Positions 10,137 to 63,178 of a stretch of 64,000 bases of DNA are shown piece after piece. The translations under genes were made by a program, and so were the position numbers. Below the pieces are notes generated by a model. It did no database searches. It was not told the DNA's origin and worked only from the letters and a program-made list of their open reading frames with translations. The stretch lies in the NCBI RefSeq assembly GCF_036365525.1, contig NC_090394.1, positions 74,030,146 to 74,094,145 of the forward strand, written 5' to 3'. The stretch is from Heterodontus francisci. Lineage: Eukaryota. How positions within the stretch are numbered: position 1 is the first letter of the stretch; each line of letters begins with the position of its first letter.

Positions 10137-10173
10137 AGTTAACGTTTCAGGTCTGTGACCTCTCATCAGAACA
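10137..10173 (-). ncRNA. Hammerhead-like motif, family B (PLE pseudo-LTR)
   Basis: Minus strand: GTT-CTGATGA-G-AGGTC-ACA-GACCT-GAAA-CG-T-T-AAC. Confidence 0.6.
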
Positions 10174-11576
10174 GTTTACACACAGCAAGATCCCGAAAAC
10201 TGCAGTGTGAAAATGACCCGATAATCAAGTTTAGTGATGTTGGTTGAGGGATAAATATTGGCCAGGACACCAGGGAATAACTCCCCGGCTCTTCTTTGAA
10301 ATAGTGCCATGGGTTCTTTTACATCTACCTGAGAGGGCAGACAGGGCCTCTGTTTAACATTTTATTCAAAAGATGGAATCTCTGACAGTGCAGCATTCCC
10401 TCAGTACTGCACTGGAGTGTCATCAGTTAATGGTCTAGCTGGAGCCGAGTGGAGCAGTGTGAATAGGATCGTGCCTGCCTGGAACGTGACCAAGTGCTCA
10501 CAGTCTCAGACCATTAACATCACAGACACCTGAGTGTCACCTGAGAATCGGAGGGATGGCAAGTGTGTTAAACAGATTCTTCCACCAATTACATTTACGC
10601 TTCATGCATTGCACTCAAAGAATGGTCAATTTCCTGTCTCTATCCAATGTAAAGCTCACAACACACTCAAACGTTATTAGGTTCCAGAAATGAACTTCAG
10701 GGATAAAGTAGCTTTACAGAAAGAATGAACTGACATTTCTATTAGCACCATTCACAACCACCGGATGTGCCAAAACACTTCACAGCCAATCAAGCACTTC
10801 TGAAGTGTTGTAGGAAATGTGGCAGCCAATGTACACACAGCAAGATCCCACAAGCAGCAATAAGATTATCTAGTTTCAGTGATGATGGTTGAGAGATATG
10901 GCCAGGATACCAATGAGAGCTTCCTGTTCTTCCTCAAATGGTGCTTTGGAATATTTACATCCACCTGACAGGACAAACGGGCCTCGATGTAACGTCTCGT
11001 TCAAAAACGCCACTTCAACAGTGTAGTACTGCCTCAGCACTGCACTTTAGTGTCAACCTTGATTGTCTGCTCAAGTCTCTGGTATGATTTATTAAGTAAA
11101 TGCTGCAGTGGAATTGCTTTTAAAATGCACTATACAAAGTTACAGCACAAAGCTGCTCATTCAGGAAAAACTAACACAGTTTAAGCATTTGAATGATCAG
11201 TGAAGTTTAGAAAACCCTCAGTGCAGTTAAACCTCTCATGAAAAATCTGCTAGACCAGAGCATCAGACACAATACAATCATTAAGAATCATAAAATTTTA
11301 CAGCGCAAAAAGAAAGAAAGACTTGCTTTTATATAGCACCTTTCATGACCACCGGACATCTGAAAGCAGTTTGCAGCCGACAAAGTACTTTTGAAGTGTA
11401 GTCACTGTTGTAATGTAGGAAATGCGACAGCCAATTTCCACACAGCAAGCACCCACAAACTGCAATGTAATAATGACCAGATAATCTGGTTTAGTGGTGA
11501 TGGCTGAAGGATAAATATTGGCCAGATCACCAGGGATAACTCCCCTGCTCTTGAGAATTGCTGAAAATAGACATGC

Positions 11577-11610
11577 TGTCGAAGCTTTTCGTCTTGCACT
11601 CATCAGGACA
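11577..11610 (-). ncRNA. Minimal type I hammerhead ribozyme motif
   Basis: Minus strand reads TGTC-CTGATGA-GT-GCAAG-AC-GAAA-AGCT-T-C-GACA: stem I, intact core, 2-bp stem II, palindromic AGCT loop III. Confidence 0.8.
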
Positions 11611-11857
11611 GCCCGCAAGAATAACCAGTGTAAGGGAAAACATGGCATAATTCAGGGTAATGCCTTGACCAATTAGAGTCAAGCTGCCTGGTTTAAATTT
11701 CAAACAAAGCTTGGCAATTAACTGTCAGTCACCATAAACTGCTGTATTCTCCATGGCAACACCTCTACTGATCAGAATTCACTTGCCAACCAAGTAGCAT
11801 TCTCTTCTCATGCAGTATAAATTGTTGTTTTCCCTTACATTGGTTATTCTTGCGGAT

Positions 11858-11891
11858 TGTCCTGATGAGTGCAAGATGAAAAGCTTCGACA
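11858..11891 (+). ncRNA. Minimal type I hammerhead ribozyme motif
   Basis: TGTC-CTGATGA-GT-GCAAG-AT-GAAA-AGCT-T-C-GACA. Confidence 0.8.
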
Positions 11892-13779
11892 ACATTTATC
11901 TATTTTCAGCAATTCTCAAGTTCTGTACTACCAAATGACTCCCCTGCTCTTCTCTGAAATAGTGCCATGGGATCTTTTACATTTACCTGACAGGGCAGAC
12001 AAGGCCTCAGTTTAACATCTTATTCAAATGATGGCATCTCGGACAGTGCAGCATTCCCTCAGTACTGCACTGGAGTGTCAGCCTAAACTATTGCACTCAA
12101 GTCTTGGAGTGGGATTATGAACCCACAACCATTTGACTCAGATGTGAGTGTGCCATCCACCAAGCCACAGTTGACACCAAAGAGGTTATTTAGCCAATTC
12201 TATCTGTGTTGATCTCTGAAGTAACTGTCCACTTACTCATATTTCACTGCTCTTTCCCCAGACCCTTTTTAATTTTTAATTTTTCCCAAATATTTATCCA
12301 TTTTCCTTTTAAAAGCTATTCTGTTTCTTCCAAGGCATTTCATGTCTTAACAACTCCCTTTAAAAAAATCCTAATCTCTCTTTTTTAAGTGATCATATTA
12401 AAGTGAAATGTCCTGTATTTACCCACTCACTGGCCAGTGGAAATATTTTACATTATCAAATAAACCCTTGTTTTTTTTAATTTCTCAAAAGGCACTCGGT
12501 CAAAATGATAAAAGGGTTAAGTTACGAGGGCACGTAGCACAGACTAGGCTTGTATTCCGAGTTTAGAAGATTAAGGGATGAACCTAATTGAGGTGATTAA
12601 GATGATTAAAGGATTTGATAGGATAGAGAGTGAAAAACTATCTCCTCAGGTGGGGGAGTCCAGAACAAGGCGTATAACCTTAAAATTAGAGCTAGGGTCA
12701 TTCAGGGGTGATGTCAGGAAGCACTTCTTCACACAAAGTGTAGTGGAAATCTGGAACTCTCTCCCTTAAAAGCAGTTGACTCTGGGGGGGCCAATTAAAA
12801 TGTTCAAAAACTGAGCTTGATAGATTTTTGTTTGGCAAGAGTATTAAGGGTTACAGAACCAATGAATTTGGATATGGATCAGCCATGATCTCATTGAATG
12901 GCGGACCAGACACAAGGGGCTGAATGGCCTCCTGCTGTTCCTCTGTTCCTATTGGTATCTGAACTCATCTGTGCAGCCAACGTTTGCCAATGGAATAATT
13001 CCAGGACGATTGATGGTCATTTCAGTGAAGTGACAGTGTTCAAACCTTTCACAGAAACAATGGCTGATAGGGTGAGTGATGTCAGCACACCATCTACACT
13101 GGACATATCGAACTCTTCTATTTCTGCACTAAGCTCTCATAAAACATCGCTGCATGTACATTGTCCTTTGTGCACCAATCTTCTCGTCTGTTTATGCATC
13201 GTGTGCAAATTCATTATACAGAGAGTTCCATTCGAAGATACATTACTTTCCAGGAAATGAATAATTGATGATAGAAACAGGAGACTGAAATTTCACTTTG
13301 GGACACAAGCTTCAAGAAATGGACCCCAGTGGGGGGGGATGTTAGATGTGAAATACTGGGAGCAGTTCCTGAGGAGAGAGATTAACAATAAATTGGTGCA
13401 GAACCAAACTTAGCTCAGGTCACTATCAATGGCAACAAGATCATATCTATATCCCAAAATTAACAATAATGTCCAGGGGTTTCCATTGTGTGTGTTCACT
13501 GAAGGGACCCGGCAGTGACTCAATCTAAGATGATTAAAGTTTCAAATCAAACTATTGGATTTCATGCCCACAGCTCCATATGTTATTAAGGTCAAGTCTC
13601 CTGAACAATAGAATGTTCTGGGAGTCCACAGCCAGTCAACCCCACCTCTACCCCCCACCACCCATCCCCCCCCTCAAACCCACTTAACATCTGTAATGAG
13701 GCAAAAGTGAGGTTCAGGGTGTGGACCCACGGTACAAGTTGAAAGTTGGGAGATCATCTTGCACTGCTTAAACTAAGAG

Positions 13780-16093: not shown

Positions 16094-16720
16094 GGATATA
16101 ATTCCCAAATTCTTGGAGGAATCAATGCCATAGTCTCCCTCTCACACACACACACACATTCAATCAGCAGAAAGCACCTTCTGTAAGCAGAAATGCAGCT
16201 ACAGGTGTTTTAGTTGGTGCATTGCGGGACTGGATGGAGATGGAGCTGGGTTTATGAATGTAGTTATGAAGCAATGCATAACAAACTGAATCCCGTTACA
16301 GCTTTTCCACCAACGGAAAATAATTTACACTTGTAGAAGTAATTCCCAACTTATCTATTTGGCCAGAGTTATTTCTCCCTAATTCCAACATATTATTGCT
16401 ATTTGTCCCTTTTAAGAGTTTTAAATTATCAATTTCAAATCAATTAACTTCACTCAAAACACTGATAGAGACTAATTCCTGCATTTTAGCCCGTATCATC
16501 ACTGGGATAATATGATCAAGATGACTATGAGAATGATTGAAAATGAATATTCCCTCAGTGGGTTTTAGATATTACACTGCAGCATTGCGAGTTCAAGTAT
16601 TTGGTTGTTCTCTCTCTCGCTCTGCTATTTTGTGGCTGTGTTCCCACTGACACTAAAGAAGAGGTAGCGTAGATAGAGAGAAATTATTTCTGCTCGTTGG
16701 GGAGACTAGGACTAGGGGCA

Positions 16721-17521
16721 ATTTACTTGTACTTCTTTCAATGTAGTATACTGTATTCGCTGCTCACAGTGTGGTCTCCTCTACATTGGGGAGACCAAGC
16801 GCAGACTGGGTGACCGCTTTGCGGAACATCTCCGCTCAGTCCGCAAGCAGGACCCTGAGCTTCCGGTTGCTTGCCATTTCAACACTCCCCCCTGCTCTCA
16901 TGCTCACATCTCTGTCCTGGGATTGCTGCAGTGTTCCAGTGAACATCAACGCAAGCTCGAGGAACAGCATCTCATCTACCGATTAGGCACACTACAGCCT
17001 GCCGGACTGAACATTGAGTTCAATAATTTCAGAGCATGACAGCCCCCCACTTTACTTTCATTTTTAGTAATTTTTAGTTATTTTTTCTTCCTTTTTTTTT
17101 GCATTCCTTTTTACATTTTTTACAATCTTTTTTTGCATTTATTTCATTTCATCTTAGTTTGTTCAGTTTGCTTACCCACTGTTTTTTTCAGGTTGTTTTT
17201 CTTCAGGTTTGCACTTGCTGATGTTCAATATTCAGTATATTCACACCTAATCTGTACTAATGCTTTGTCTTTCAACACACCATTAACATATTGTTTGCCT
17301 TTGCTCCGTGACCTTTTGGTCAGCTATGTGGCCTGGTCCAATCTGCACCTTCTCCTTTGTTATCTCTTGCCCAACCCCCACCTCACTTGTTTATAATCTG
17401 TGACTTTTCTAATATTTGTCAGTTCCAAAGAAGGGTCACTGACCCGAAACGTTAACTCTGCTTCTCTTTCCACAGATGCTGCCAGACCTGCTGAGTGAAT
17501 CCAGCATTTCTTGTTTTTGTT
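16721..17521 (+). mobile_element. Penelope-like element 3' fragment (GIY-YIG endonuclease end plus pseudo-LTR)
   Basis: DNA nearly identical to the GIY-YIG segment at 18233-18551 (VYCIRCSQCGLLYIGET); its 3' region is shared with 47083-47717. Confidence 0.85.
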
Positions 17522-18014
17522 GTAATCTAGAACATACCCTGGCATGACCTGAGGAACCTCCCCGTAGTGGCAAAGCTTTGGGACCCTAAGTCCAAACTCA
17601 CCTGTTCCTCCCAAGCACACTACACTCACCACACCAGGTCTCAAATTTCTCACATACTGTACTCTAAAGTATAATTCTCTGAAAGAAACCTATCTATATC
17701 TTCCACTTTGCTGAATCTATATTTACTGTTTCCACTGTCTCCCCAGGGAGCCTGTTCCAATGTCAGTTACATCATTAGATTTAAGTATATTTTTTGCACA
17801 GCATTTCCCCTTTTATGATTACATCATAATTTGGAACCAGGACTAGCTGCAACAGTCAGACTGGGCCACAATATTATGCATTTATTCATCAGGGACATCC
17901 TCGTTTAATCAAGTCCCACTGAATTTGTGACTCAATCACAACATTCACTAATCTTCCCATTCCCCACAACATTTCCTATAACCCAATTAGCAGTTAAACA
18001 GATAACCACAGATA

Positions 18015-18989
18015 GCCACTACCAAACGCACCTTCCCCTCCCTTCGCCTGTCAGCATTCCGAAGGGATCATTCCCTCCGCGACACCCTGGTCCACTCCTC
18101 CATTACCCCCACCACCTCGTTCCCGTCCCATGGCACCTTCCCCTGCAACCGCAGGAGGTGTAATACCTGCCTATTTACCTCCTCTCTCCTCACTATCCCA
18201 GGCCCCAAACACTCCTTTCAGGTGAAGCAGCGATTTACTTGTACTTCTTTCTATGTAGTATACTGTATTCGCTGCTCACAATGTGGTCTCCTCTACATTG
18301 GGGAGACCAAACGCAGACTGGGTGACCGCTTTGCAGAACACATCCGCTCAGTCCTAAAGCAGGAACCCGAGCTTCCGGTTGCTTGCCATTTCAACACTCC
18401 CCCCTGCTCTCAGGCTCACATCTCTATCCTGGGATTGCTGCAGTGTTCCAGTGAACATCAATGCAAGCTCGAGGAACGACATCTCATTTACCGATTAGGC
18501 ACACTACAGCCTGCCGGACCGAACATTGAGTTCAATAATTTCAGAGCATGACGGGCCCCACCGCTCCTCCCCCCCACAATTTTACTTTTATTTTTAGTTA
18601 TTTTTTCTTTTTTATATTTTTTTGTGTTTGTTTTATTTTATTTCATCTTAGTTTGTTCAGTTTGCTTACCCACTTTTTTTTCATGTTTGTACTTGCACCT
18701 GTTCAATATTCAGTCCGTCAACACCCTATCTGTACTAATGCTTTGTCTTTCAACACACCATTAACATATCTTTGCTCCATGACATTCAGGTCAGCTACTC
18801 TGTGACCTTGTCCTATCTACACCTCCTTTGTTATCTCTTGCCCCACCCCCACTTTACTTGCTTATAACCTTTGACATTTCTAATATTTGCCATTTCTGAA
18901 GAAGGGTCACTGACCTGAAACGTTAACTCTGCTTCTCTCTCCACAGATGCTGCCAGACCTGCTGAGTATTTCCAGCATTCCTTGTTTTT
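18015..18989 (+). mobile_element. Penelope-like element 3' fragment
   Basis: ORF 18222..18551 has VVYCIRC..C...YIGETKRRLGDRFAEH...H, the PLE GIY-YIG signature; followed by the pseudo-LTR; ATAACCACA repeated on both flanks (18002, 18990). Confidence 0.88.
18892..18928 (+). ncRNA. Hammerhead-like motif, family B, at the 3' end of a GIY-YIG PLE fragment
   Basis: CTGAAGA-A-GGGTC-ACT-GACCT-GAAA-CG-T-T-AACT. Confidence 0.55.
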
Positions 18990-19464
18990 ATAACCACATC
19001 TAACAACTGCTGGTCTGGAAAGTGGGAATTCTTGCTTCGCAGTCATTCTTATTATCCCAAAGTTCAGTCAAGTTAATTCCCCAGTTACAAAGAGAACAAT
19101 AGAAAAAGTCCAGGCATTGTTGCATGATCTGAGGGAGGAAAGGGAAGATGAATTAATGACACGGGAAACGATGTTACAGCAAATGCTCGAAGTCTCCGTG
19201 TTACGTTGTAAAGTATTCTCCTTATAATCTTGCACGCGTGTAGTCTACAAATTTATTTGTTATGGGTGCAAAAATATCATCCCAATATAACAGCAGAAGA
19301 GAGTGAAGTGTTTCTGAAAGGAGCTGTATGTATGTATCAGGTGTGCTGAGGATATAAATAGAGGCAGTTCATTAACTGGCAGGAAATTCAATAGCAGGTG
19401 AAACTCGTCTATCTGATCCATGCGACGCAACCCAAGTACAGTAAAGAGTCACCTTAATGCAGCG

Positions 19465-37244: not shown

Positions 37245-39367
37245 TCCCTCTGTGCAGAGAGAAACAAAGTTACTATTTCAGGTTAATGAGCTTTCATCAG
37301 AAACGAGAAAAGTTAGAAATGTTTTACGTAAGTGAAAGGCGGGGAGGGTGGGTAAAAAACAAAAGAAAAGTCTGTGATAGGATGAAAGACAGGAGAGATT
37401 ACATGACAAAAGAGTTGGTAGTGCAGGGCCAAAGGGAGTGGTAATGGGACAAGTAAAGAAACAAGATGTGACTAGAGGAGATGTGAATGGCAGAACAATG
37501 AACAGCTATTGTCCGGCAAAAACAAGAGTAAAACTGAAACCTACAAAGAAAAAGGAAACAAAATGGGGTCAGAGGTTACAGTCTGAAATTGTTAAACTCA
37601 ATGCTGTCGGCTTTAAAGTGATTAATCGAAAGATGAGGCGTTGTTCCTGGAGATACGTTAAGCTTCATTGGAACACAGCAGGAGGCCAAGGGCAGACAGG
37701 TCAGCATGATAGCAAGATAGAGAATTAAAATAACAGGCGAACAGAATCTTGGGACCACACTTGTGGATGGAACAGAGGTATTCCCCAAAACGGTCACCTA
37801 ATCTGCGTTTGGTCTCCCAATGTAGAACAGACTGCATTGTGAGCAACGAATGCAGTATACGAAATTGAAAGAAGTACAAGCAAATCGCAGTTTCACCTGG
37901 ACAGAGTGTTTGGGGCCTTGGACGGTGAAGAGAGAGGAGGGAGGAGGTAAAAAGGCAGGTGTTTCATCTCCTGCATTTGTGTGGAAAGGTGCTGTGGGAA
38001 AGGGAGGGGGGGAGTGTTGGGTGCGATTGAGGAATCAACCAGGCTGTTGCGGAGTGAACGGTCCCTTCGGAATGCTGAAAGGGGAGGGGGAGTGGAAGAT
38101 GCATTTGGTGGTGGCATCATGCTGGAGACGGCAGAAATGGCAGAGAATCATCCATTGAATGCAGAGGCTGGTGCAGTGAAAGTGGGGGACAAGGGGAACC
38201 CTATTATCTGGGAGGGAGGGGAAGGGGTGAGAGCGAAAGTATGGGAAATAGGACCACCCTGTCGAGGGCCTCGTGAGCCACAATAGGGGGTAAGGGGAAT
38301 CCTCAGTGGAGAGATAAAAAAGACTTATCAGAAGCACTGATATGGAAAGTTGCATCATCAGAACAGATGTGTTGGAGACAGAGAAACTGGGAGAATGGAA
38401 TGGAGTCCTTACAGGGAGGGTGTGAGGAAGTGTAGCCAAGGGACTTGTGGGAGTTAGTGTGCTTATAATGAACATTCGTTGATAGCCTATCCTCAGAAAC
38501 AGAGAAGTTGAGAAAGGGAAGGGAAGTGTTGGAGATGGACCATGTGAAGGTGAGAGAGGGGTGGAAATTGGAAGCAAAGTTGATGAATTTTTCCAGTTCA
38601 GGGCGAGAGCAGGAAATGGCACCGATACAGTCATCAATATACAGGTAAATGAGATGAGGGAGGGGGCCCGAGTAGGACTGGAACAAGGAAAGTTTCACAT
38701 TTCCCACAAAATTGCAGGCATTGCTAGGACCCATGCGGGTACCCATAGCAACACGTTTTACTTGGAGCATGTGAGTGGAGTCAAAGGTGAAGTTGTTCAA
38801 TGTGAGAACATGTTCAGCCAGGCGGAGGAGGTTATTGGTGGATGGAGAGTGATTGGGCCTCCTTTCAATGAAGAAGTGGAGAGCCCTCAGACTATCTTGG
38901 TGGCGGATGGAGATTTAGAGAGATTGGGCTGCTATGGTGAAGAGGAGATGGTTAGGGCCAGGAAACTGGTAATTGTTAAAGTGACGGGACTATCGGAAGA
39001 GTCACGGATGTTAGTGGGAAGAGAAGTCCTGCCATTCACATCTCTTCGAGACGCATCTTTTGTTTCTTTATTTGTGCCATTACCACTCCCTTTGGACCTG
39101 CACTACCAACCCTTTTGTCATTTAATCTCTCCTGTCTTCCACCCTCTCACAGACCTTCCCTTTTGTCCTTTTTCCACCCCCCACCCCACCCCTTTCACTT
39201 GCTTAAAACCCATTATATTACTAACTTTTCCCAATTCTGGTGAAAGGTCACTGACCTGAAACGTTAACTCTGTTTCTCTCTCCACAGATGCTGCCAGACC
39301 TGCTGAGTATTTCCAGCACTTTCCGTTTTTATTTTCGATTTCCAGCGTCCACAGTATTTTGCTTTTG
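37245..39367 (-). mobile_element. Degenerate Penelope-like element (RT and GIY-YIG remnants) with inverted 5' pseudo-LTR
   Basis: ORF 38303..38800 has NNFTF...VAMGTRMGPS...YIDD (PLE RT); GIY-YIG remnant near 37760-37900; pseudo-LTR at about 37250-37500 on minus and about 39030-39367 on plus. Confidence 0.85.
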
Positions 39368-40449: not shown

Positions 40450-40625
40450 CAAAAGCAAAATACTGTGGATGCTGAAAATCTGAAATAAAAACAGAAAATG
40501 CTGGAAATTCTCAGGAATTCAGGCAGCATCTGTGGAGAGAAAAACACAGTTAACATTTCAGGTCTGTGACCTTTCATCAGTTCTGCCTGACCTGCTGAGT
40601 ATTTCCAGCAATTTTCTGTTTTTAA
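40450..40625 (-). mobile_element. Short PLE pseudo-LTR fold-back insertion in an L2-like fragment
   Basis: Family B sequence plus a short inverted arm; flanked by CTCCATAAA(T/C)TTGA at 40436-40449 and 40626-40639. Confidence 0.75.
40548..40582 (-). ncRNA. Hammerhead-like motif, family B
   Basis: Minus strand: CTGATGA-A-AGGTC-ACA-GACCT-GAAA-TG-T-T-AACT; stem I partner is lost. Confidence 0.45.
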
Positions 40626-44828: not shown

Positions 44829-47145
44829 TGTGTCAAACCTTTGGATAAGCTCAAGCTTCTTTTAAAATCAAAGGTCATGTATCAAAAGTCTCATTGAAGT
44901 GAAGGTTTAAGCTGAGACACAAAAGAGTTAATCACCTCCAGCAAAAGCTTATAGCTAAAATCACTCGAGGCTGGTAGCATACTGGTGCTGCTACTGGACT
45001 AGTAATCTAGGGGTCTGGGCTAATGTTCTGGGAGTATGTGTTCAAATCCCATCAGAACAGCTAAGGGAATTAAAATGTAATTAATACATTTACAATAAAA
45101 TACTAGTTTCATTCATAATAATTATGAAGCTACTGGATTGCAATGAAAACTCATCTGGTTCACAAATGACCATCAGGGAAGGAAATCTGCCAGCCTTACC
45201 TGGTCTGGCCTACATGGGACTCCAGACCCACATCAATGTTGTTGACTCTTAACTGTCCTCTGAAATGGCTGAGGAAATCACTCAGATCAATGGCAATTCG
45301 GGATGGACAATAATTGCTGGTCTTGTTAGTGATGCTCATGTCCCAAGCATGAATTTTAAAAAAAAATTAGACGATTAAGTTCTCCAGCAAGTGTCATTGG
45401 ATTGCAATCAGGCTGATCCCCTTGTGGGAGAATCTAGAACTAGGGGTCACTGTTTAAAAATAAGGGGTCGCCTATTTAAGACTGAGATGAGGAGAATGTT
45501 TCTCTCAGAGGGTCGTGAGTCTTTGGAATTCTCTTCCTCACAAGGCGGTGGAAGCAGAGTCTTTGAATATTTTTAAGGCAGAGGTAGATAGATTCTTGAT
45601 AAGCAAGGGGGTGGAAGGTTATCGGGGGTAGGCGGAAATGTGGAGTAATCAGTTCAGCCATGAACTTATTGAATGGCAGAGCAGGCTTGAAGGGCCGAGT
45701 GGCCTACTCCTGCTCCTAATTCGTATGTTCGTATGATCATTCTCCTCCTTATTCTCTGGAGTTATTGAGGCTCATTGTAGTGTCTGCTTAGATCAGTGAA
45801 CTCAATGCAATCCAGGCACTGAACTTGGGACCTTTGTCATGCCCAGCAGTGCATTGACCTACTGGGAAGCACATTAGCCAAGTTATGAAATGCAAAGAGA
45901 GATCATTGGGAGAAGGATAACTGATCAGAGATGGATTTGCTATGTGAACTATAAGCATGATGCGATACAATGTACTAGGGACCTCTTTCAATATTTAAAT
46001 TATGAATAGGTTTTTTTTACACAGGACTGTCAACAGCAATATCAAAATGGTGCTAATCGATTGGACATCATTGAAAAAGTGGACTTGAAACATTTCCATC
46101 TCCAATGTTGGCATGAAGTGGAGTTTTATTTACTGAATCTTCAAGTTTAAATGAATTTACTTTTAGTCAAGTTCTTCAGTTTCACTCATCACTTTGCGTC
46201 TCTGCTCTTGTCTCGCCTTGCTCCAGAGGTATTGTACAGATGTCACTGTTTGACGTCAACTGGCAGCGTCTGCCATTTTGGACATCCCTTATTGGTTAAA
46301 GATAAAGAAGACAGCATTAATATTTAATTGCTGTAATTAGTTTATCCTTATTCTAACACCTATTGAGTGAAAGCATTGTTCAAAGTTGAAGCTTCCCTCT
46401 CTTTAGGACTCACTCGACTCTCTATATTGAAGGCAAGATAAACACAGATGACTAAGTGCTGTTGGAACAGTAAAAGATGTCATCCGTCTTAGACAACTGG
46501 CCAAAGTAAAATAAGGTGGTTTGTAACTTTAGATTGATGGTATGAAATTTCATTAGGTTAGACTAGGGAAAGATTTCACAGACCTTTGTCTTGTTCAAAG
46601 GCTTGCTTTTGACATTTACTTTAGGAGAGATTGTATGTTGGGTGCAGTTCATGATAAGGGAAATTGTAAATGATCTATTGAGAGGGGGCTTTGGGGCATA
46701 ATGGCGTTTTCTCGTTCCATATTGTCTTACTTTCCCTTATATTTAAATCTTCGGCCAAAGTCCAGATATTTTACAGTAGCCAGCAACGTAGTTTTTTTTT
46801 GGTCAAAGGTCCTTTTTCCTAATTGATATTTACATGCACAGTAGCATAATCAGCCACAAAAAAAATTGACACCAAGCCAAAGACAGAGACATTAGGAAAG
46901 GTGCCCAAAAGCTTGGTCAAAGAGGTAAGTTTTAAGGAACATCTTAAAGGACAAGTGAGGGGTGAAGCAGTTTAGGGAGGGAATTCCAGAGCTTGGGGCC
47001 AAGATGACTGAAGGCACAGCCGCCAATCGTGGAGCGAAAGAGGCACAAGAAGCTAGAGTTAGAGGAACACAGAGATCACGGAACAAAAACAAGAAATGCT
47101 GGAATCACTCAGCAGATCTGGCAGCATCTGTGGAAAGAGAAGCAG

Positions 47146-47182
47146 AGTTAACGTTTCGGGTCAGTGACCCTTCTTCGGAACT
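47146..47182 (-). ncRNA. Hammerhead-like motif, family B, variant core CCGAAGA
   Basis: Minus strand: AGTT-CCGAAGA-A-GGGTC-ACT-GACCC-GAAA-CG-T-T-AACT. Confidence 0.45.
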
Positions 47183-47580
47183 GACAAATATTAGAAAAGT
47201 CACAGATTATAAACAAGTGAGGTGGGGGTGGGGCAAGAGATAACAAAGGAGAAGGTGCAGATTGGACCAGGCCACATAGCTGACCAAAAGGTCACGGAGC
47301 AAAGGCAAACAATATGTTAATAGTGTGTTGAAAGACAAAGCATTAGTACAGATTAGGTGTGAATACACTGAATATTGAACAGCAGCAAGTGCAAACCTGA
47401 AGAAAAACAACCTGAAAAAAACACTTACCCACTGTCTTAACATTAACATATTGTTTGCCTTTGCTCCGTGACCTTTTGGTCAGCTATGTGGCCTGGTCCA
47501 ATCTGCACCTTCTCCTTTGTTATCTCTTGCCCAACTCCCACCTCACTTGTTTATAATCTGTGACTTTTCTAATATTTGTC

Positions 47581-47617
47581 AGTTCCGAAGAAGGGTCACT
47601 GACCCGAAACGTTAACT
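47581..47617 (+). ncRNA. Hammerhead-like motif, family B, variant core CCGAAGA
   Basis: Identical motif in the opposite arm of the fold-back element. Confidence 0.45.
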
Positions 47618-50460
47618 CTGCTTCTCTTTCCACAGATGCTGCCAGACCTGCTGAGTGATTCCAGCATTTCTTGTTTTTGTTTCAGATTTCCAGCATCCGC
47701 AGTATTTTGCTTTTATTACAGAGATCACGGAGGCTTGTATGGCTGGAGAAGGTTACAGAGATAGGGAAGGGGGCACATGACCATGGAGGGATTTGAACAC
47801 AAGGGTAAGAATTTTAACTTTGAGGCTTTGGGGGACCGGGAGTCAATGTAAGTCAGCGAACACAGGGGAAATAGGTGAACATAAGTTGGTGCGAGTTACA
47901 ATGAGGGCGATTCTAGTTAAGAAATTATCGGTTTTTCCCCCCAAAAAACATCTAAAAAAGTTATCAAAAATATTTAATGATATCTTTTCAGAAAGGGCCT
48001 AATGTGTCCGAGGAGTTTGATATCGAAAATGACCAAGGGACTTGAGCTAAAATGGGCTCAGAAGACATATGAAAAAGTGCTGTCAGCTTTTGTTATAAGA
48101 TGGTTGATTCCAAACATGGACTTGTTAATAAAAGAAACTTGAAGGGAATATTTTTCATGGCTATGGGAAAAGAGCAGGCGAGTGGGACTAATTGGAAAGC
48201 TCTTTCAAAGAGTCGCCACAAGCACGATGGGCTGAATGGCCTCCTTCAGGGCTGTAAGATTGTATGATTCTACAAGCTGGCCCTAATGGCTCAGCTGATG
48301 CATTTACTGTGTCAAGTTAAGCAACACTGATTAGCCGGGTTGTAGGTTCAAGGCTTTATTAGTCGTTCCTCAGCTTTTGCAGTGATAGGGATGCTATAGT
48401 AGCCTCTGCATACCTGGGCTAGCGAAGGAGGGGAAGGGTAAGACATCAGCCAGAGTTTCTATGTCTGGTTCCCATCCAGTGACTGATCACGCATGTGGAC
48501 ATCGGCTGAGCACAGGCCCAGCGATGCCCTACATAGTCGAATACCCTTCCATTTTAGCAGGTGGAGAGGGATGTAAAACTGGTGATATTTGATTGATGCC
48601 CATTATACAACGCACTTGATTTTCCATTGTGTTGGTTGCAATTAATTGCAAGGAAAGTTGATGGGGTTGTCCGGGAATTGGTGATCTGATGCAGCCAGTT
48701 TTCACCACTCCCACACCCACTTAATTTAAAAGTTCTCCCCCTTGTCAGTCCCGAGTGTCCAGGGTCAAAAGGGAATCATCCTGTACCCACTGGGCAGACT
48801 CATCAATGGAACCAAACACAAGCTCCAATAATATGCCCAAGGACCTAACTCTCATGCTAGGTACCAGCCTTGGCTCACTTGGTTTTTACTCTTACCTCTG
48901 ATGGTTATAGATTCAAGACCCAATCCAGAAACGTAAGCCCCTTCTAGGCTGACACTTCCAGTGCCAGTACTGAGGGAGTGTTACACAGTCAAAGGGATGT
49001 TAAACCGAGGACCTTAGAGGCGTATCAAAAAGATCCCATGGCACTATTTTGAAGAAGAGCCGGGGAGTTCTCCCCAGTGTCCTGGCCAATATTTATCCCT
49101 CAACCAACATCACAAAAACAGATTATCTGGTCACTATCACATTGCCTTCTGTGGGATCGTGCTGTGCACACATTGGCTGCTGTGTTTCCTCCGTTACAAC
49201 GATGATTACACTTCAATAGTACTTCATTGGCTGTAACGCTCTTTGGAATGTCCTGAGGTGGGGAAGGGCGCTACAGAAATGCAAGTTTGCTGCTTTGGGA
49301 GGTTGGGAAAGGGGCCACATAGAGAAATATGCAAGACTTTCTTCCAATGAGGGGACGAATCCCGCCTGAAGGGAAACTGACACTGAAACACTTTTGGTTT
49401 TTTTTGTACTTTAAAGAAATTTTCAAACAATGTTATTTCCAAAAAAATAAATGTGAATACAAAACCAATTCTAAAAGCAGGAAAATGTTTATGCGGACAA
49501 ATCTTTTGAGAGACAAAACTATGTCCCTAACCAGTAAGTGGTGCTGTAGAGTCCTACAAACATCTACCAGCACTGAGGGAGGAAAATGCTGTAGGAGTTT
49601 ACACCAGAAATCCAGTGACAAACAAAGAAAAAAAGGTATTTTTCTTTTGAATGTTTTAATTAGCTTCAGAATTAAAACATGTATTATTGAAGTTTTACAT
49701 GTGGGGTTCCTGGCTGCTTTAATTAGTGTTCTAAGCCTCATCTTTCTGACTGATCCATTTGTGGGAAGTGTCCCAGGCAACAGGCACCATGACTGGGGGA
49801 AACTGATCAAATTTAGCCTGCTGGAAACATGAGGCCTAGATATATTTTTTAGGTTTGTGTGTCTGACAGTAAGATTTTATTTATATAAAGCTTTGCATTC
49901 TAAAACTAATATTTTGCTGTACGAGTCTCAAATTTCTAGCTAGAGCTAAATTCTGGAAGAAAAGCACAAACAAGGTGCACAACATTAGCTGGGATTGGAT
50001 TTCAAATTAGCCTGTTACCAGGTGAGGCCTACAACCAAAAATCACACAATAACCTGGGGGAAGAGTTTTTTTTTAAAAAAAGTACTTTTTAAATGTACTT
50101 TTTATAAAAGGAGCCTTTCGCCAAGAATTTGTTTTTAGTAAATAACGTATGATTTAATTAATAGCTGAGCACAACATAAGAGACAGTCCTGAACTTGTCC
50201 AGATAAACAGGTCGTCCTTGTTCTTAACAGTTTGGGATTATGTCAAGTTTGTGACCGGGCTTCGTGTTTTTTTTTTGAGCCTGTTTAATGGTGCTCCTGC
50301 TAACATTGAACTTATTTGTGCTTGTCTCAAGAGTGATCCATGTTCTGGTAGCATCTGTTTTTTTTTTGTGTCAGATAATCACTCCGGCGAGGTGTCTTGG
50401 GACTTTTTTTCTTCTCTCCCCATGTTAAAGGCACTATATCAATGCAAGTTGTTGTTGTAA

Positions 50461-53600: not shown

Positions 53601-55386
53601 ATAAATAGTGTCACTCCAGACGTCACGTTGATGAACTGAAACTGGATACACGTAGCATTAAGGCTTGTAAACCAATATACAGTATAAACGTTATCTGTAG
53701 TGGTCGTCAATGGAATTGATGATAATTGCGCACAATTAATAATATATACAGTAGAAGTTTTCAGGTGTGTTCTGTTTATTCCTACTGTACAGCACAAGAC
53801 CAGGAGATTAAATTGCACAAGAGCAGGGGATTAAATTTATATATAGCAAAAAGATATAATCGTATTTTAAGAATGAAGAGGCCACGTACTGCTTGGATAA
53901 CGGTCTGAATGAGGTAGAGGGAACTGGGGGGTACAGACGCCAGATACACAAATCACAGCAATGCTGGTTAGTAAAGCTGTTTTTAAAAAAAAAAAAGCAA
54001 ACAAGGCACTAGGGTTAATTTCTAGAGGGACAGAATTGAAAAGGAGGGAATTCGAGTTAAACCTGTATAGAACCTTGGTTCGACCATACTTGGAGCACTG
54101 TGAGCAGTTCTGATCTCCATCTTATAAAAGGGATATAGAGGCATTGGAGAAGGTGCAAACATGATGTACACTGACGATAGCAGTGCATAGAGGTTATAAC
54201 TAGCAGGGAAAACTCAATAGGCTGGAGCTCCTTTCTCTAGAAAAGAGAAGGCTGAGAGGTGACCCGAGAGAGGTCTTCAAAATGATGATGGGGTTTGATA
54301 GCAGGGACGTAGAGATGTTTCCACTTGTTGGTCTTAATGCTCCACATGAGCCTCCTCCCATTCCTTATATCTCATCTGAACAACAGACCTTTCTATTCCT
54401 TTCTCCCTCATGTCTTTATCTAGCTTCTCTGAAATGCATCTATACTATTCACCTCAACTCCTTCTCACAAGTTCCACATCTTCACCGTTCTCTAGGTAAA
54501 GAAGTTTCTCCTGTATTCCCTATTAAATTTATTGGTGACTGTCTTATATCGATGGCCCCTCATTCTGATCTCACCCACAAGGGGGAACATCTTCTCTACG
54601 TCTACCCTATCAAAACCTGTCATGATCTCGAGGACCTCTCAGGTCATCCCTCAGTCTTCTCTTTTCTAGAGAAAAGAGCCCCAGCCTGTTCAATCTTTCC
54701 TGATGGGTATAATCTCTCAGTTCTGCTGTCGTTCTAGTAAATCTATTTTGCATCTTCACCTGTGCCTCTATATCCTCCTCACGATGTGGGGCTCAGAACT
54801 GTGCACAGTATTCCAAGCGTGGTCTAACCAATGTTCTATACAAGTTTAATATAATTTTTCTGCTTTCCAATTCTACGTATATTATTGTTCTTTCTTTTGG
54901 GCCTCCTTATCTCGAGAGACAATGGATACGCGCCTGGAGGTGGTCAGTGGTTTGTGAAGCAGCGCCTGGAGTGGCTTATTGTATCAACTTTTAAATGATC
55001 TATAATGTGTGTTGAGTAACAGTGAGTGTGTAAAGTTTTGGCTATATTTGAAACGTACATCTATAGATTGTGCTCTTCTAAACTGTTGCTTACGAGTCTG
55101 TCAATGATGGTTGGAGCAGTTTGAAGTGACGGATTAAGAATATCACAGGCCGAACCCTATCTGCACTTTGGAATGTAATTGTAAGGGTTAAGCAGAGTTT
55201 GTTTCTCTATGGTGTATTGATCCTGGTACAAACACATCACAATAACTGTGGGATTTTTGTATGAATGAGCGGATTGTTTACATTGACTCAACTGGTTACT
55301 GAATCCTGATGAAGAATTTCCAGCAGGGTTTTGGATGATTGGGATGCTTACATACTGTAGTCTCTTTGTTTCTGTTCAGCCCCAGG

Positions 55387-58400: not shown

Positions 58401-61400
58401 GCACTGTGGTTTTTGGGAGCTTGCTGTGCGCAAGTTCTTTCTTCAATTCTCCCTCCCTAAGGAGATGCACTTTGTTCTGTGCTCACTACCCCCTGCTGCT
58501 TGGAAGGTGTTGGTGCATAGTGCTCATGTTTTGACACAGCTTGGGGTCACTGTATTTACTCTTTTCCCTGCACCCCTCCCCCACCTTTCTTTCCCTCATT
58601 GTCTTCCACTTCCCCCTCCCCTCAGAAGCTGGTGCTGTTTCTGTCCATTCACCACTGCTGCTCTTTATGTTGCTGTGGCCAGGTGGTGTCAAATCCTATG
58701 ATTGAAAAGATGAACAAGGATGGAACTCGTGTCCCGGAATATCAGGAGGACGAGATACTGGTTAGTTAGTGTTTACTCACAATCTACTTCCGCCCCAAGG
58801 TTAGATTTCACCAGGAAAACTTTACTGTATTGGGTATCAAATCATCCGTGAAAAGCAGATAGAGAGCTCATGGATCGTAGTGCTGGATCCTGGTGCAGGA
58901 TCCTAGTGCTCGATCGTAGTGCTGGATCCTGGTGCAGGATCCTGGTGCTGGTTGGCAGAGATCATGAGAAAAATAGCCCCATCCCAGAACCATTTTACAT
59001 TTAATTAAAAACTTTTAAGAGAGCAAAGGAAATTTGCAGGGCCATGGGGGAGATTGGATAACTCTTTCCAAGAGCTGGTACAGCCTTGATGGGCTGAATG
59101 GCCTCAGACCACACTGCAAGAGTCTATGGGTGTTCACTGTCAATCAATTCACTCAAATTTCAACAAAACCGATAGTAAAAGCTATCATAATTTTTTTTTT
59201 AAATCGGTCAGCTGTGATCAAACTGAATGGTGGAACAGGCTGAATGGCCTCCTCCTGTTCGTATGTTCCTAAGGCACTGCAAATGTGGAAAGGAAGTAAG
59301 CATTGTCTTTCTTTTCTCTGGAAAAGAGAAGGCAGAGGGGTGACCTGATAGAGGTCCCTTTAATTATGGAAGGGTTTGATAGGGTAGATACAGATGGTGA
59401 ATGTTGAAAAAGGAGGTAATTCAGACACTGGAGGGGTTTAAAATTGATTAAGAGGAAGTATTAGATAGGCTGTCTGTACTTAAAGTGGATAAAGCACCAG
59501 GACCAGATGAAATGCATCCAAGGATACTGAGGGAAGTGAGGGTGGAAATTGCAGAGGCACTGGCCATAATTTTCCAGTCTTCCTTAGACTTGGGGATGGT
59601 GCCAGAGGACTGGAGAATTGCAAATGTTCCACCCTTGTTCAAAAAAGGATGCAACTGCAGGCCAGTCAGTTTAACTTCAGTGGTGGGAAAACCTCTAGAA
59701 AAAATAATTCGGGATGAAATTAAGTTACATTGTCAAATGCGGGTTAATTAGGGAAAGCCAGCATGGATTTCTTCAGTGAAATTATGTTTAACTAACTTGC
59801 TGGAATTTTTTGAGTAGGTAACAGAGAGGGTTGATGAGGGCAATGCTATTGATGTGGTGTACATGGACTTTCAAAAGGCATTTGATACAGTGCCACACAA
59901 CAGACTTGTGAGCAAACTTATAGCTCATGGAATGAAAGGGACAGTAGCAAGATGGATACAAAATTGGCTGAGTGACAGGAAACAAAGAGGAGTGGTTAAT
60001 GGATGTTTTTCGGGATGAAGGAAAGTTTGTAGCGGAGTTCCCCAGGGGTCAATGTTGGGACCCTTGCTTTTCCTGATATATATTAATGACCTAGATCTTG
60101 GTGTACAGGGCACAGTTTCAAAGTTTGCAGATGATGCGAAACTTGGAAGCATTGTGAACTGTGAGGAGGATAGTGTAGAACTTCAAAAGGACATAGACAA
60201 GTAGGTGGAATGGGCAGACAGGTGGCAGATGAAGTTCAATGCAGAGAAATGTGAAGTGATTCATTTTGGTAGGAAGAACATGGAGAGAAAATATAAAATA
60301 AAGGGTACAATTCTAATGGGGGTGCAGGTGCAGAGGGACCTGGGTGTATATGTGCCATAAGTCATTGAAGGTGGCAGGACAGGTTGAGAGAGCAGTTAAT
60401 AAAACATACAGTATCCTGGGCTTTATTAATAGGGGCATAGAGTACAAGAACAAGGAAGTTATGTTGAACTTGTATAAGACACTAGTTCGGCCTCAGCTGG
60501 AGTATTGCGTCCAGTTCTGGGCGCCACACTTTAGGAAAGACGTGAGGGTATTGGACAGAGTACAGAAAAGATTCACGGGAATGATTCCAGGGATGAGGAA
60601 TTTCAGTTATGAAGATAGATTGGAGAAGTTAGGGCTATTTTCCTTGGAGAAGAGAAGGCTGAGAGGTGATTTGATAGAGGTTTTCAAAATCATGACCGGT
60701 CTGGACAGAGTAGATAGAGAGAAAATGTTCCCACTCGTGAGAGGATCGAGAACGAGAGGGCACAGATTTAAAGTATTTGGTAAGAGTGACACAAGGAAAA
60801 ACATTTTCTCGCAGCGAGTGGTTAAGGTCTGGAATGTGCTGCCTGAGAACGTGGTGGAGGCAGGTTCAATTGAAGCATTCAAAAGGGAATTAGACAGTTA
60901 TATGAAATGAAGAATGTGCAGGGTTATGGGGAAAAGGCGGAGGAATGGAACTGAGGGAACTGCTGTTTCGGAAAGCCGGTGCAGGCGCGATGGGCCGAAT
61001 GGCCTCCTGTGCTGTAACAATTCTGTGATTCTGTTTCCATTAGTGAGAACACCAGAATTAGGAGCCATAAATATAAAGTAGTCAGCAATAAATCCAATAG
61101 GGAATTCAGGAGAAACATCTTTACCCAGAGAGGGGGAGAATGTGGAACTCACTATACAAGATGTAGTTGAGGCTAAGGGAATAGATGCATTTAAGGAGAA
61201 GCTGGATAAACACCTGAGGGAGGAAGGAATCGAAGGATATGCTGCTGGGGTAAGGTGAAGAGGGGTAGGAGGAGGCCTCGTGTGGAGCAGCAACACTGGC
61301 ATGGACCAGTTGGGCTAAAGGGCCTGTTTCTGCACTGTAAGTACTATTGAATTCTCTTGCTGTTGCTGTTTTGTAAAGTAAACCTTTGCTTGTATTTCAG

Positions 61401-61635
61401 GACACAGTGTACGGGGCAGTCATCCAGCAGTGTTACTGTATGTACAAGGTGATGTGGATCGGCTATTTCCTATGCACTTTCTCCTTCTCGTTTTCTTTAC
61501 TGACCAATATTCCCAGCTTAACGTTCGCTTCTGGTTTTCCCGCATGTTCAGCTCTTCAATGGCACCTTTGTAAAATCCATGGAAGCTGGAGGCATTGACC
61601 ATCTGCAACAGAGGATCCAGAAGTTTTTCTACAGG
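55387..61635 (+). CDS. CCZ1: CCZ1 vacuolar fusion protein (MON1-CCZ1 Rab7 GEF subunit), N-terminal part, incomplete at 3' end; join(55387-55473,56175-56272,57464-57557,58683-58760,61401-61448,61552-61635)
   Basis: Six in-phase GT-AG exons translate to MTTAHERQFPPSLLSFFIYNPKFGPREGE/EEKKILFYHPSEVDKNEKIRNVGLCEAIVQFTR/TFCPTKPAKSLHTQKNRQFFHEAEENFWMVM/VVSNPMIEKMNKDGTRVPEYQEDEIL/DTVYGAVIQQCYCMYK/LFNGTFVKSMEAGGIDHLQQRIQKFFYR, recognisably the vertebrate CCZ1 N-terminus. Confidence 0.96.
56175..56272 (+). CDS. CCZ1: CCZ1 coding exon 2
   Basis: TAG acceptor, AG|GTAAGG donor; 98 nt; KILFYHP...NVGLCEAIVQFT. Confidence 0.95.
57464..57557 (+). CDS. CCZ1: CCZ1 coding exon 3
   Basis: 94 nt; KPAKSLHTQKNRQFF...ENFWMVM. 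Confidence 0.95.
58683..58760 (+). CDS. CCZ1: CCZ1 coding exon 4
   Basis: 78 nt; VVSNPMIEK...EYQEDEIL; donor GTTAGT. Confidence 0.93.
58872..58949. repeat. Minisatellite, 6 x 13 bp (GGATCCTRGTGCW)
   Basis: Six units arranged as a 39-bp higher-order duplication. Confidence 0.85.
59395..61030 (+). mobile_element. CR1-type LINE fragment in CCZ1 intron 4
   Basis: KAPGPD..HPRIL, VPEDWRIANV and LVRPQLEYCVQFWAP motifs across broken frames. Confidence 0.9.
61401..61448 (+). CDS. CCZ1: CCZ1 coding exon 5
   Basis: TTTCAG acceptor; 48 nt; DTVYGAVIQQCYCMYK. Confidence 0.93.
61552..61635 (+). CDS. CCZ1: CCZ1 coding exon 6
   Basis: 84 nt after a 103-nt intron; LFNGTF...KFFYR; donor AGG|GTAGGA. Confidence 0.93.
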
Positions 61636-61669
61636 GTAGGACCCTTCATTTATTAATCACGGAATCACA

Positions 61670-62085
61670 GGATTCTTACAGCAGAGAATCAGGCCATTCG
61701 GTCCATCGTGACTACACTGGCTCTCACTCGATAAAAGATTTTCCTCATGTTGCCGTTATTTATTTTGCCAATTATCTTAAATCTGCGCCCTCCCGTTCTC
61801 GATCCTTTCACAAGTGGGAACAGTTTCTCTCTATCTACTCTGTCCAGGCCCCTCATGATTTTGAATACCTCTATCAAATCTCCTCTCGGCCTTCTCTTCT
61901 GCAAGGAAAACAGTCCCAACTTCTCCAATCATTCTTCGTAATTGAAATTCCTCATCCCTGGAACCATTCTCATGAATCTTTTCTGTACTCTCTCCAATGC
62001 CCTCACATCTTTCCTTAAGTGCGGTGCCCAGAACTGGACACAATACTCCAGCTGAGGCTGAACTAGTGTCTTATACAAGTTCAAA
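61670..62085 (-). mobile_element. CR1-type LINE 3' fragment
   Basis: ORF 61689..61928 ([20 protein letters not shown]), inverted relative to its neighbours. Confidence 0.85.
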
Positions 62086-62094
62086 TCTGTGTTT

Positions 62095-63178
62095 TTGTGA
62101 CTGGAGGGCTGTTTCCAGTGGCGTGAAGTAGGGCTCAGTACTGGGTGCCCTGCTTTTTGTGGTGTATATTAATATTGGATATAAATGTAGAGGGCGTGAT
62201 CACAAAGTTTGCAGACGACACAAAGATTGGCCGTGTAGTAGATAGCGAGGAGGATAGCTGTAGGCTGCAGGAAGATATTGATGGTCTGGTCAGATGGGCA
62301 GAAGAGTGGCAAATGGAATTCAACTTGGAGAAGTGTGAGGTGATGCATTTGGGGAGGTCAAACAAGGCAAAGGAATACACGATTAATGGGAAAATACTGA
62401 GACGTGTAGAGGAACTGAGGGACCTTGGATTGAATGTCCACAGATCCCTGAAGGTAGCAGGACAGGTCGATAAGGTGGTTAAGAAGGCATATGGAATCCT
62501 TTAATAAAAACGAGAAATGCTGGAGCCACTCAGCATTTTATATGGAATCCTTTCCTTTGTTAGATGAGGTATAGAATATAAGAGCAGGGAGGATATGCTG
62601 GAACTGTATAACTCATTGGTTCGGCCACAACTTGAGTACTGTGTGCAGTTCTGGTCACCTCATTACAGAAATGATGTAATTGCACTAGAGAGGGCACAGA
62701 GGAGATTTACGAGGATGTCGTCAGGACTGGAAAAATGCAGCAATGAGGAAAGATTGGATAGGCTGGGGTTGTTCTCCTTGGAACAGAGAAGGCTGAGGGG
62801 AGATCTGATTGAAATGTACAAAATTTTGAGGGGCCTGGATAGAGTGGAGGTGAAAGACCTATTTATCTTAGCAGAGAGGTCAGTGACTAGGGGGCATAGA
62901 TTTAAAGTGATTGGTAGAAAAATTAGAGGGGAGATGAGGAATAACTTTTTCACTCAGAGGGTGATGGGGGTCTGGAACTCACTGTCTGAAAGGGTAGTTG
63001 AGGCAGAAACCCTCAACTCATTCAAAAGGAGTCTGGATATGCACCTCAAGTGCTGTAATCCGCAAGGCTACAGACCAAATGCTGGAAGGTGCGATTAGAC
63101 GGGGAGGATTGTTTTTCGGCAGGCACAGACACGATGGGCCAAGTGGCCTCTTTCTGTGTCGTAAACCTTCTATGAATC
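62095..63178 (+). mobile_element. CR1-type LINE fragment
   Basis: KFADDTKIG and LVRPQLEYCVQFWSP in ORFs 62145..62504 and 62595..63098. Confidence 0.9.

Follow-up and report, generated by a model that had tools for sequence, protein, structure and literature searches.

Structure of the insert

A 385-bp insert that contains no ORF (11553–11937) lies in the window, the 64-kb stretch of DNA analyzed here, between the two copies of a target-site duplication (TSD; Table 1). When the insert is excised in silico, 15 of the window's 22 non-self matches continue through the rebuilt junction; therefore, the insert splits a multi-copy repeat. An earlier note, made from the sequence alone, had placed the insert in a SINE. 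The interruption of a repeat stands; the repeat is a putative SINE.

The two arms of the insert are inverted relative to each other and are identical in 87 of 95 aligned columns, the differences being 6 substitutions and one 2-nt gap (BLAST E 2e-33). The 17 nt at 11921–11937 have no partner in the other arm and form an unpaired tail. This anatomy is as the earlier note had described it: an exact 14-bp TSD, inverted arms of ~93 bp, a 17-nt tail and an insert of ~385 bp. An inverted, 5'-truncated copy at the 5' end, with a TSD around the whole unit, is also the arrangement seen in insertions of EN+ Penelope-like elements (PLEs). At each end, the TSD overlaps family sequence by 3 nt (11550–11552 and 11938–11940), and the outer end of the left arm coincides with the inner 3' end site of the family (about 11916–11920 in right-arm coordinates).

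The “spacer” between the arms contains TATAAA at 11816. In most reads of the family, the ribozyme is preceded by three CCAAT-type boxes (11669, 11768 and 11790) and a TATA box; two of the CCAAT-type boxes are mutated in this copy. The CCAAT and TATA boxes may act as a promoter.

Table 1. Features of the insert at 11539–11951 and of related elements in the window
Feature	Position	Strand	Remarks
Split host interspersed repeat	11300–12180	.	15/22 non-self matches span the rebuilt junction
Left TSD copy, 14 bp	11539–11552	.	ACTCCCCTGCTCTT, exact; last 3 nt shared with the start of the left arm (microhomology)
Left arm: inverted, short, 5'-truncated copy of the pseudo-LTR (pLTR) end	11550–11642	-	93 nt
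Left minimal type I hammerhead	11575–11612	-	core 11606–11581; 6-bp stem I; predicted cut after 11581 (minus)
Junction filler or rearranged stretch, 9 nt	11643–11651	.	family reads depart from the reference here
“Spacer”: upstream portion of the same pLTR/3' end module	11652–11825	+	truncated at 11652
Right arm: direct pLTR end	11826–11920	+	95 nt; continuous with spacer in family reads
Right minimal type I hammerhead	11857–11892	+	core 11862–11887; 5-bp stem I; predicted cut after C11887
PLE “tail”: family-wide extension between two 3' end sites	11921–11940	+	last 3 nt overlap the right TSD
Right TSD copy, 14 bp	11938–11951	.	exact duplicate of 11539–11552
Older PLE unit	about 37249–39366		minus: RT 38911–38303, GIY-YIG 38115–37582, pLTR 37322–37249
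Short palindromic stump, GIY-YIG-linked family	40451–40624		tailed minus copy 40578–40451; short plus copy to 40624
Fold-back insert, GIY-YIG-linked PLE family	47069–47731		14-bp TSD, tail, two outward hammerhead cores

Hammerhead motifs

The earlier note had proposed two inverted, intact-looking minimal hammerheads, and both are present. They face outward, with all 13 core positions intact in each, a 2-bp stem II and a palindromic loop III (AGCT). Minimal type I hammerheads whose loop III is palindromic are characteristic of the pLTRs of EN+ PLEs. In the right arm, stem II is closed by G-U instead of the usual G-C, and stem II on its own is predicted to be unstable (+2.0 and +3.3 kcal/mol). 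The motif occurs twice in 64 kb versus 0.00 times expected from 100 shuffles, and a relaxed core scan gives 5 matches in the window (2 here and 3 in another PLE family), compared with an average of 0.02 for 100 random windows. The Rfam models, a check that the earlier note had suggested with Infernal, yielded no match at the gathering score across 64 kb and none at E<=10 across 901 bp; minimal hammerheads likely fall outside these models. Four short stretches folded without constraints were no more stable than shuffles (z −0.11 to 1.76).

Would these ribozymes cleave at this locus? A transcript that runs through the insert from either flank is predicted to form a long hairpin (−186 and −193 kcal/mol) in which the core is paired to the antisense arm at 99.9% and 96%. 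No cis dimer is possible because the two cores sit on opposite strands, and a trans dimer between the cores would depend on a 6-bp duplex with a predicted energy of −4.3 kcal/mol. In these models, the hammerheads at this locus are predicted to be inactive. The earlier note had expected a transcript from either strand to end in a self-cleaving motif; a working motif at the transcript end is doubtful because transcription would reach the antisense arm first, and this arm is predicted to pair with the core.

The absence of core changes among the 8 arm columns that differ is what chance would give (P=0.29). Among 40 of the 110 variants found in reads, from which the following figures are drawn, 196 of 847 and 204 of 842 reads (23%–24%) carry a change at the cleavage-site CpG, and 161 and 187 of 757 reads (21%–25%) carry one at a CpG outside the motif; G12 is changed in 23 of 169 left-arm reads (14%), below other CpG sites. 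The similar rates of CpG loss at the cleavage site and outside fit neutral decay after insertion. The ribozyme of the source element was probably maintained, because the majority letters in the reads keep the core.

An ATG in the hammerhead core starts a 25-codon frame that runs through the tail (11865–11940, plus strand), provided that 11877 has the left-arm letter, which 53% of reads share. This frame is possibly the start of the parent's ORF, although the case is weak, since such a frame would arise by chance with a probability of about 0.3. Raw-read depth over the ribozyme (11845–11890, both arms) is about 1060 versus about 710 at 11815–11844; this excess suggests that many short copies start just before the motif.

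The family in public reads

Part of the insert is present in 20 of 24 listed public runs, under four organism labels. Four runs were mapped at 80% likeness, namely 13148 contigs (run X1), 2620 raw reads (run X23), and 1355 and 1301 contigs from the other two. The runs are perhaps from relatives of the window's species, and contigs lose rare variants. The spacer (from 11652), the right arm and the tail are covered at high, unbroken depth, which falls away at the joint between the left arm and the spacer. In the reads, these three parts make up a single uninterrupted end module of a high-copy family. The earlier note had called for a genome-wide copy-number check; done on public reads, it shows the end module to be high-copy and finds the joint of the two-arm unit nearly absent. 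For example, a single raw read in X23 lies at 11635–11649 versus about 860 at 11710–11724, and the ratio of joint depth to spacer depth is 0.0002–0.0014 (0.02%–0.14%) in all four runs. A family of fixed structure would carry both ends and the internal joint in many copies, which is not the case in these runs, and none of the contigs listed spans the whole two-ribozyme unit.

Upstream of 11652, 307 of the 2620 X23 reads leave the reference in one consensus (agreement 0.87), as do 58 of the 13148 X1 contigs (agreement 0.81). Because this upstream sequence is shared, the “spacer” belongs to a longer element, of which it is an upstream portion cut short, and such variable 5' truncation of a longer element is found in EN+ PLEs. 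The 3' ends fall into two clusters in all four runs, behind 11913 and behind 11940, with 112 and 202 loose read ends, respectively, in X23 and 163 and 330 loose contig ends in X1. Sequences beyond both clusters are unrelated flanks (agreement 0.41–0.48). The inner cluster, near 11916, matches the outer end of the left arm, and the outer cluster matches the tail end of this copy. Thus, the tail is bounded by two family-wide 3' end sites ~25 nt apart and is present at one end only, as in EN+ PLEs.

Run X1 contains at least six other joints between the left arm and the body, each in one contig; none is at this breakpoint among the joints listed (15 of 47 and 12 of 20). Since the joints differ between copies, the fold-back is rebuilt at each insertion. 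Five of the six “opposite strand” joints listed were excluded as fold-backs because the inverted arms of the reference can yield them from collinear sequence.

Search for a coding parent

No RT or GIY-YIG parent was linked to the family by protein searches, whose power was close to nil because the sequence queried was mostly non-coding. Translated across its stops (replaced by X), the spacer gave no candidates in two word-index searches. Against 1.84 billion sequences it gave two matches; both were dismissed as chance because they are translations of tandem repeats. One of them, to P0037, consists of 13 of 27 residues across a stop and is inflated by nine tandem repeats. Pattern scans of contigs from metagenomes (two scans), genomes (one) and viruses (one) returned 0 matches, as expected for a vertebrate repeat.

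A second PLE family in the window

The window contains another PLE family, linked to a GIY-YIG frame, and no similarity was found between it and the insert, in agreement with the earlier note. Its fold-back insert has 240-nt arms (47082–47321 and 47441–47681) that are 99% complementary. The unpaired middle is part of a longer inverted copy and is 98% like 17180–17521, which lies behind a GIY-YIG frame. This frame has a tblastn match of 91% to a frame at 18006–18548 and a Pfam GIY-YIG match (E 4e-4) just under the curated cut-off. Relatives of the family's RT carry PF00078, with PF01541 in 2 of 35. The hammerhead cores of the fold-back insert have C, not U, at position 4; U is present in the copies at 10169 and near 18907. 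From its 98%–99% likeness to 17180–17521, the insert looks young. Its TSD overlaps family sequence by about 1 nt, versus 3 nt at 11539–11951. The GIY-YIG-linked family serves as an internal control, and it yields the same fold-back layout as the insert at 11539–11951.

In the older PLE unit, the minus-strand part is head-to-head with a plus-strand pLTR and tail (39179–39366); no TSD was located for this unit. Two GIY-YIG plus pLTR 3' ends, at 16718–17521 and 18006–18992, lie on the same strand about 1.5 kb apart. Both end at the inner site and lack the tail, whereas copies ending at 10037, 39366, 40451 and 47717 have it. There are seven close inverted pairs in the window, and a TSD is found only in the two PLE stumps (11539–11951 and 47069–47731). 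Close inverted pairs of LINE-like 3' ends, with no TSD detected, occur at 54032–54874, 60464–62084 and 61834–62848; we take these ends to be of the CR1 type. Another RT in the window has its closest relatives in elasmobranchs, so the host looks like a shark or ray.

Origin of the insert

How did the insert arise? The feature is real and is most likely a one-off PLE stump of the inverted-pLTR-plus-tail kind, otherwise ordinary. More specifically, it is very probably a single, dead-on-arrival, 5'-truncated, inverted insertion of a high-copy PLE end. The earlier note had proposed a PLE origin, a minimal dimer-type hammerhead and an inverted pseudo-LTR, and these are supported by the anatomy, the reads and the same layout in the GIY-YIG-linked family. 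In outline, a tailed, 5'-truncated direct copy (11652–11940) would have been placed head-to-head with a shorter inverted copy (11642–11550). We infer a staggered cut, two-strand priming, early stops and end joining. The PLE GIY-YIG endonuclease would cut the two strands about 14 nt apart, and each exposed target strand would prime reverse transcription through a 3-nt match, with the outer start site giving rise to the tailed copy and the inner start site to the inverted copy. Both cDNAs would stop early and be joined via about 9 nt of filler. The hammerheads would be passengers carried over from the pLTR; tandem transcripts of the source element would likely be self-cleaved by them slowly, with the help of dimer formation or a protein.

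Two family-wide 3' ends that match the two ends of the insert fit a two-primer origin for PLE inversions. This route is not established in the portions of the published PLE work drawn on here, and PMC3846280 argues for self-priming on an antisense template. Several points count against our reading: the low-power searches linked no RT/GIY-YIG parent to the family, the tail is 17–23 nt versus the published 30–40, the 3-nt overlaps stand against homology-free priming in vitro, and G12 in the left arm is changed less often than other CpG sites.

The earlier note had regarded the 385-bp two-ribozyme unit as a replicating non-autonomous family in its own right. The clean TSD, the two intact cores and the lack of an ORF agree with this idea, and non-autonomous PLE derivatives are known (PMC8557442; bioRxiv 10.64898/2026.07.22.740005). 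However, the idea is very unlikely to be correct: the central joint is nearly missing in all four runs (possibly of related species), no listed contig spans the unit, the sequence extends upstream and the breakpoints differ among copies. Moreover, the unchanged core is expected by chance, and the predicted fold of the read-through RNA is a long hairpin. Another rival is a direct PLE stump that later acquired its inverted arm by DNA-level repair or template switching. Copying from arm to arm would yield the minority allele shared at 11914/11556, but the TSD exactly encloses both arms, the inverted arm ends at the inner 3' end site of the family, and the unrelated family has the same layout at 47069–47731; a later inversion is thus highly improbable.

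It is possible, albeit unlikely, that the insert is a one-off fold-back whose longer source family is itself a non-coding, retrozyme-like pLTR derivative moved in trans by another PLE. Animal retrozymes are pLTR relatives of 51–972 bp (bioRxiv 10.64898/2026.07.22.740005), and the protein searches, with their low power, found no parent. Non-LTR retrozymes consist of head-to-tail units with same-strand hammerheads, whereas this family has one motif per strand in 64 kb and no same-strand tandem copy in the window. The 25-codon frame from the core ATG also resembles the start of PLE ORFs, a weak argument, since chance alone would give such a frame with a probability of about 0.3. Least probable is a MITE-like DNA transposon, or a DIRS-like element, with hammerhead-like sequence arising by chance. 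The near-terminal inverted repeats and the TSD would suit such an element, and P0037 has a repeated hAT-like stretch, but the match to P0037 is the inflated one described above. The termini are not inverted, the right end having a 17-nt extension, and the copies of the family have fixed 3' ends and variable 5' ends, which upholds the earlier note in keeping the family apart from DNA transposons. The TSD is 8 bp for hAT elements and absent for DIRS elements; 14 bp fits neither.

For the preferred reading, an inverted insertion of a PLE end, there is a further question of whether the arms were copied from one template or two. Relative to the right arm, stem I of the left arm carries a compensatory change on both sides (T-A to C-G at 11857/11892), and the pair 11856/11893 is repaired (left-arm counterparts, 11612–11611 and 11576). 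These changes make up three of the six arm substitutions, with a simulated P of about 0.01 (0.012), or 0.0006 with the extension, in a post hoc comparison. The left-arm alleles of stem I are in the minority in reads. Both arms share the minority base at 11914/11556; 77% of X23 reads differ at 11914. One rather improbable explanation is that the arms were copied in one insertion from two RNA templates, one per target strand, at the two start sites of the family. A plainer alternative is that the stem I difference is one templated hairpin-correction mutation after insertion. If the two-template explanation is true, fold-back stumps like this one would document, thousands of times over, how a dimeric PLE enzyme primes on two templates, and they would record selection on the ribozyme in source elements as well.

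What are the wider implications? Fold-back PLE stumps mimic MITEs or two-ribozyme mini-elements, so caution is warranted in annotation. The locus is of little importance alone but is useful as raw material on the origin of PLE inversions, a step that published work, in the parts drawn on here, calls unresolved.

Comparison with known systems

The inverted-pLTR-plus-tail layout has been known since at least 2013–2014, and this copy is the decayed end of a common retroelement. PMC3846280 describes an inverted pLTR with a tail and a TSD of 9–10 bp, and PMC8557442 gives an inverted 5'-truncated copy and a tail of 30–40 bp as typical. The insert resembles the EN+ PLE insertions of these two accounts in its head-to-head inverted 5'-truncated copy, single-end tail, enclosing TSD and TATA in the pLTR. 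It differs in that it has no ORF, a tail of 17–23 nt versus 30–40 and a TSD of 14 bp versus 8–10. Nor is a protein linked to its family by the searches above.

The minimal type I hammerheads of metazoan PLEs are defined in PMC4209133, which reports no cleavage of monomers and low cleavage of dimers. The same 2014 paper describes dual minimal hammerheads on opposite strands, 100–700 bp apart, as probable truncated PLEs; the two motifs here are 255 bp apart and on opposite strands. They share with the published hammerheads an intact core, a stem I of 5–6 bp and a 1-bp stem III with a palindromic loop. Compared with the Schistosoma consensus, which has a 7–8 bp stem II and a bulge, stem II here is 2 bp and there is no bulged nucleotide after A9. 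The right copy also differs in having G-U at 10.1–11.1.

Similarities extend to Poseidon of Anolis (PMC11167929). In that work, the PLE protein cleaves the two strands and extends each of them. Synthesis begins at either of two RNA positions, between which the tail lies, and initiation in vitro occurs without homology to the cut DNA; the ribozyme needs the protein and is dispensable for insertion in vitro. As in Poseidon, two 3' end sites downstream of the hammerhead bound the tail, and the hammerhead overlaps a possible ORF start. In the present family, the ends fall about 29 and 53 nt beyond the cut site, versus about 85–92 nt in Poseidon. No shark PLE hammerheads were found in a literature search that had most subscription journals and Repbase/Dfam outside its reach; this family may already be among the ribozymes in the supplementary lists of PMC4209133 and PMC11167929.

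Animal non-LTR retrozymes (bioRxiv 10.64898/2026.07.22.740005) are likewise non-coding, a few hundred bp long and PLE-derived, with type I hammerheads. In that account, retrozymes are tandem units, and one of nine dimers was cleaved. Their units are arranged head-to-tail with ribozymes on the same strand, whereas the insert described here is a single, head-to-head structure with its two motifs on opposite strands.
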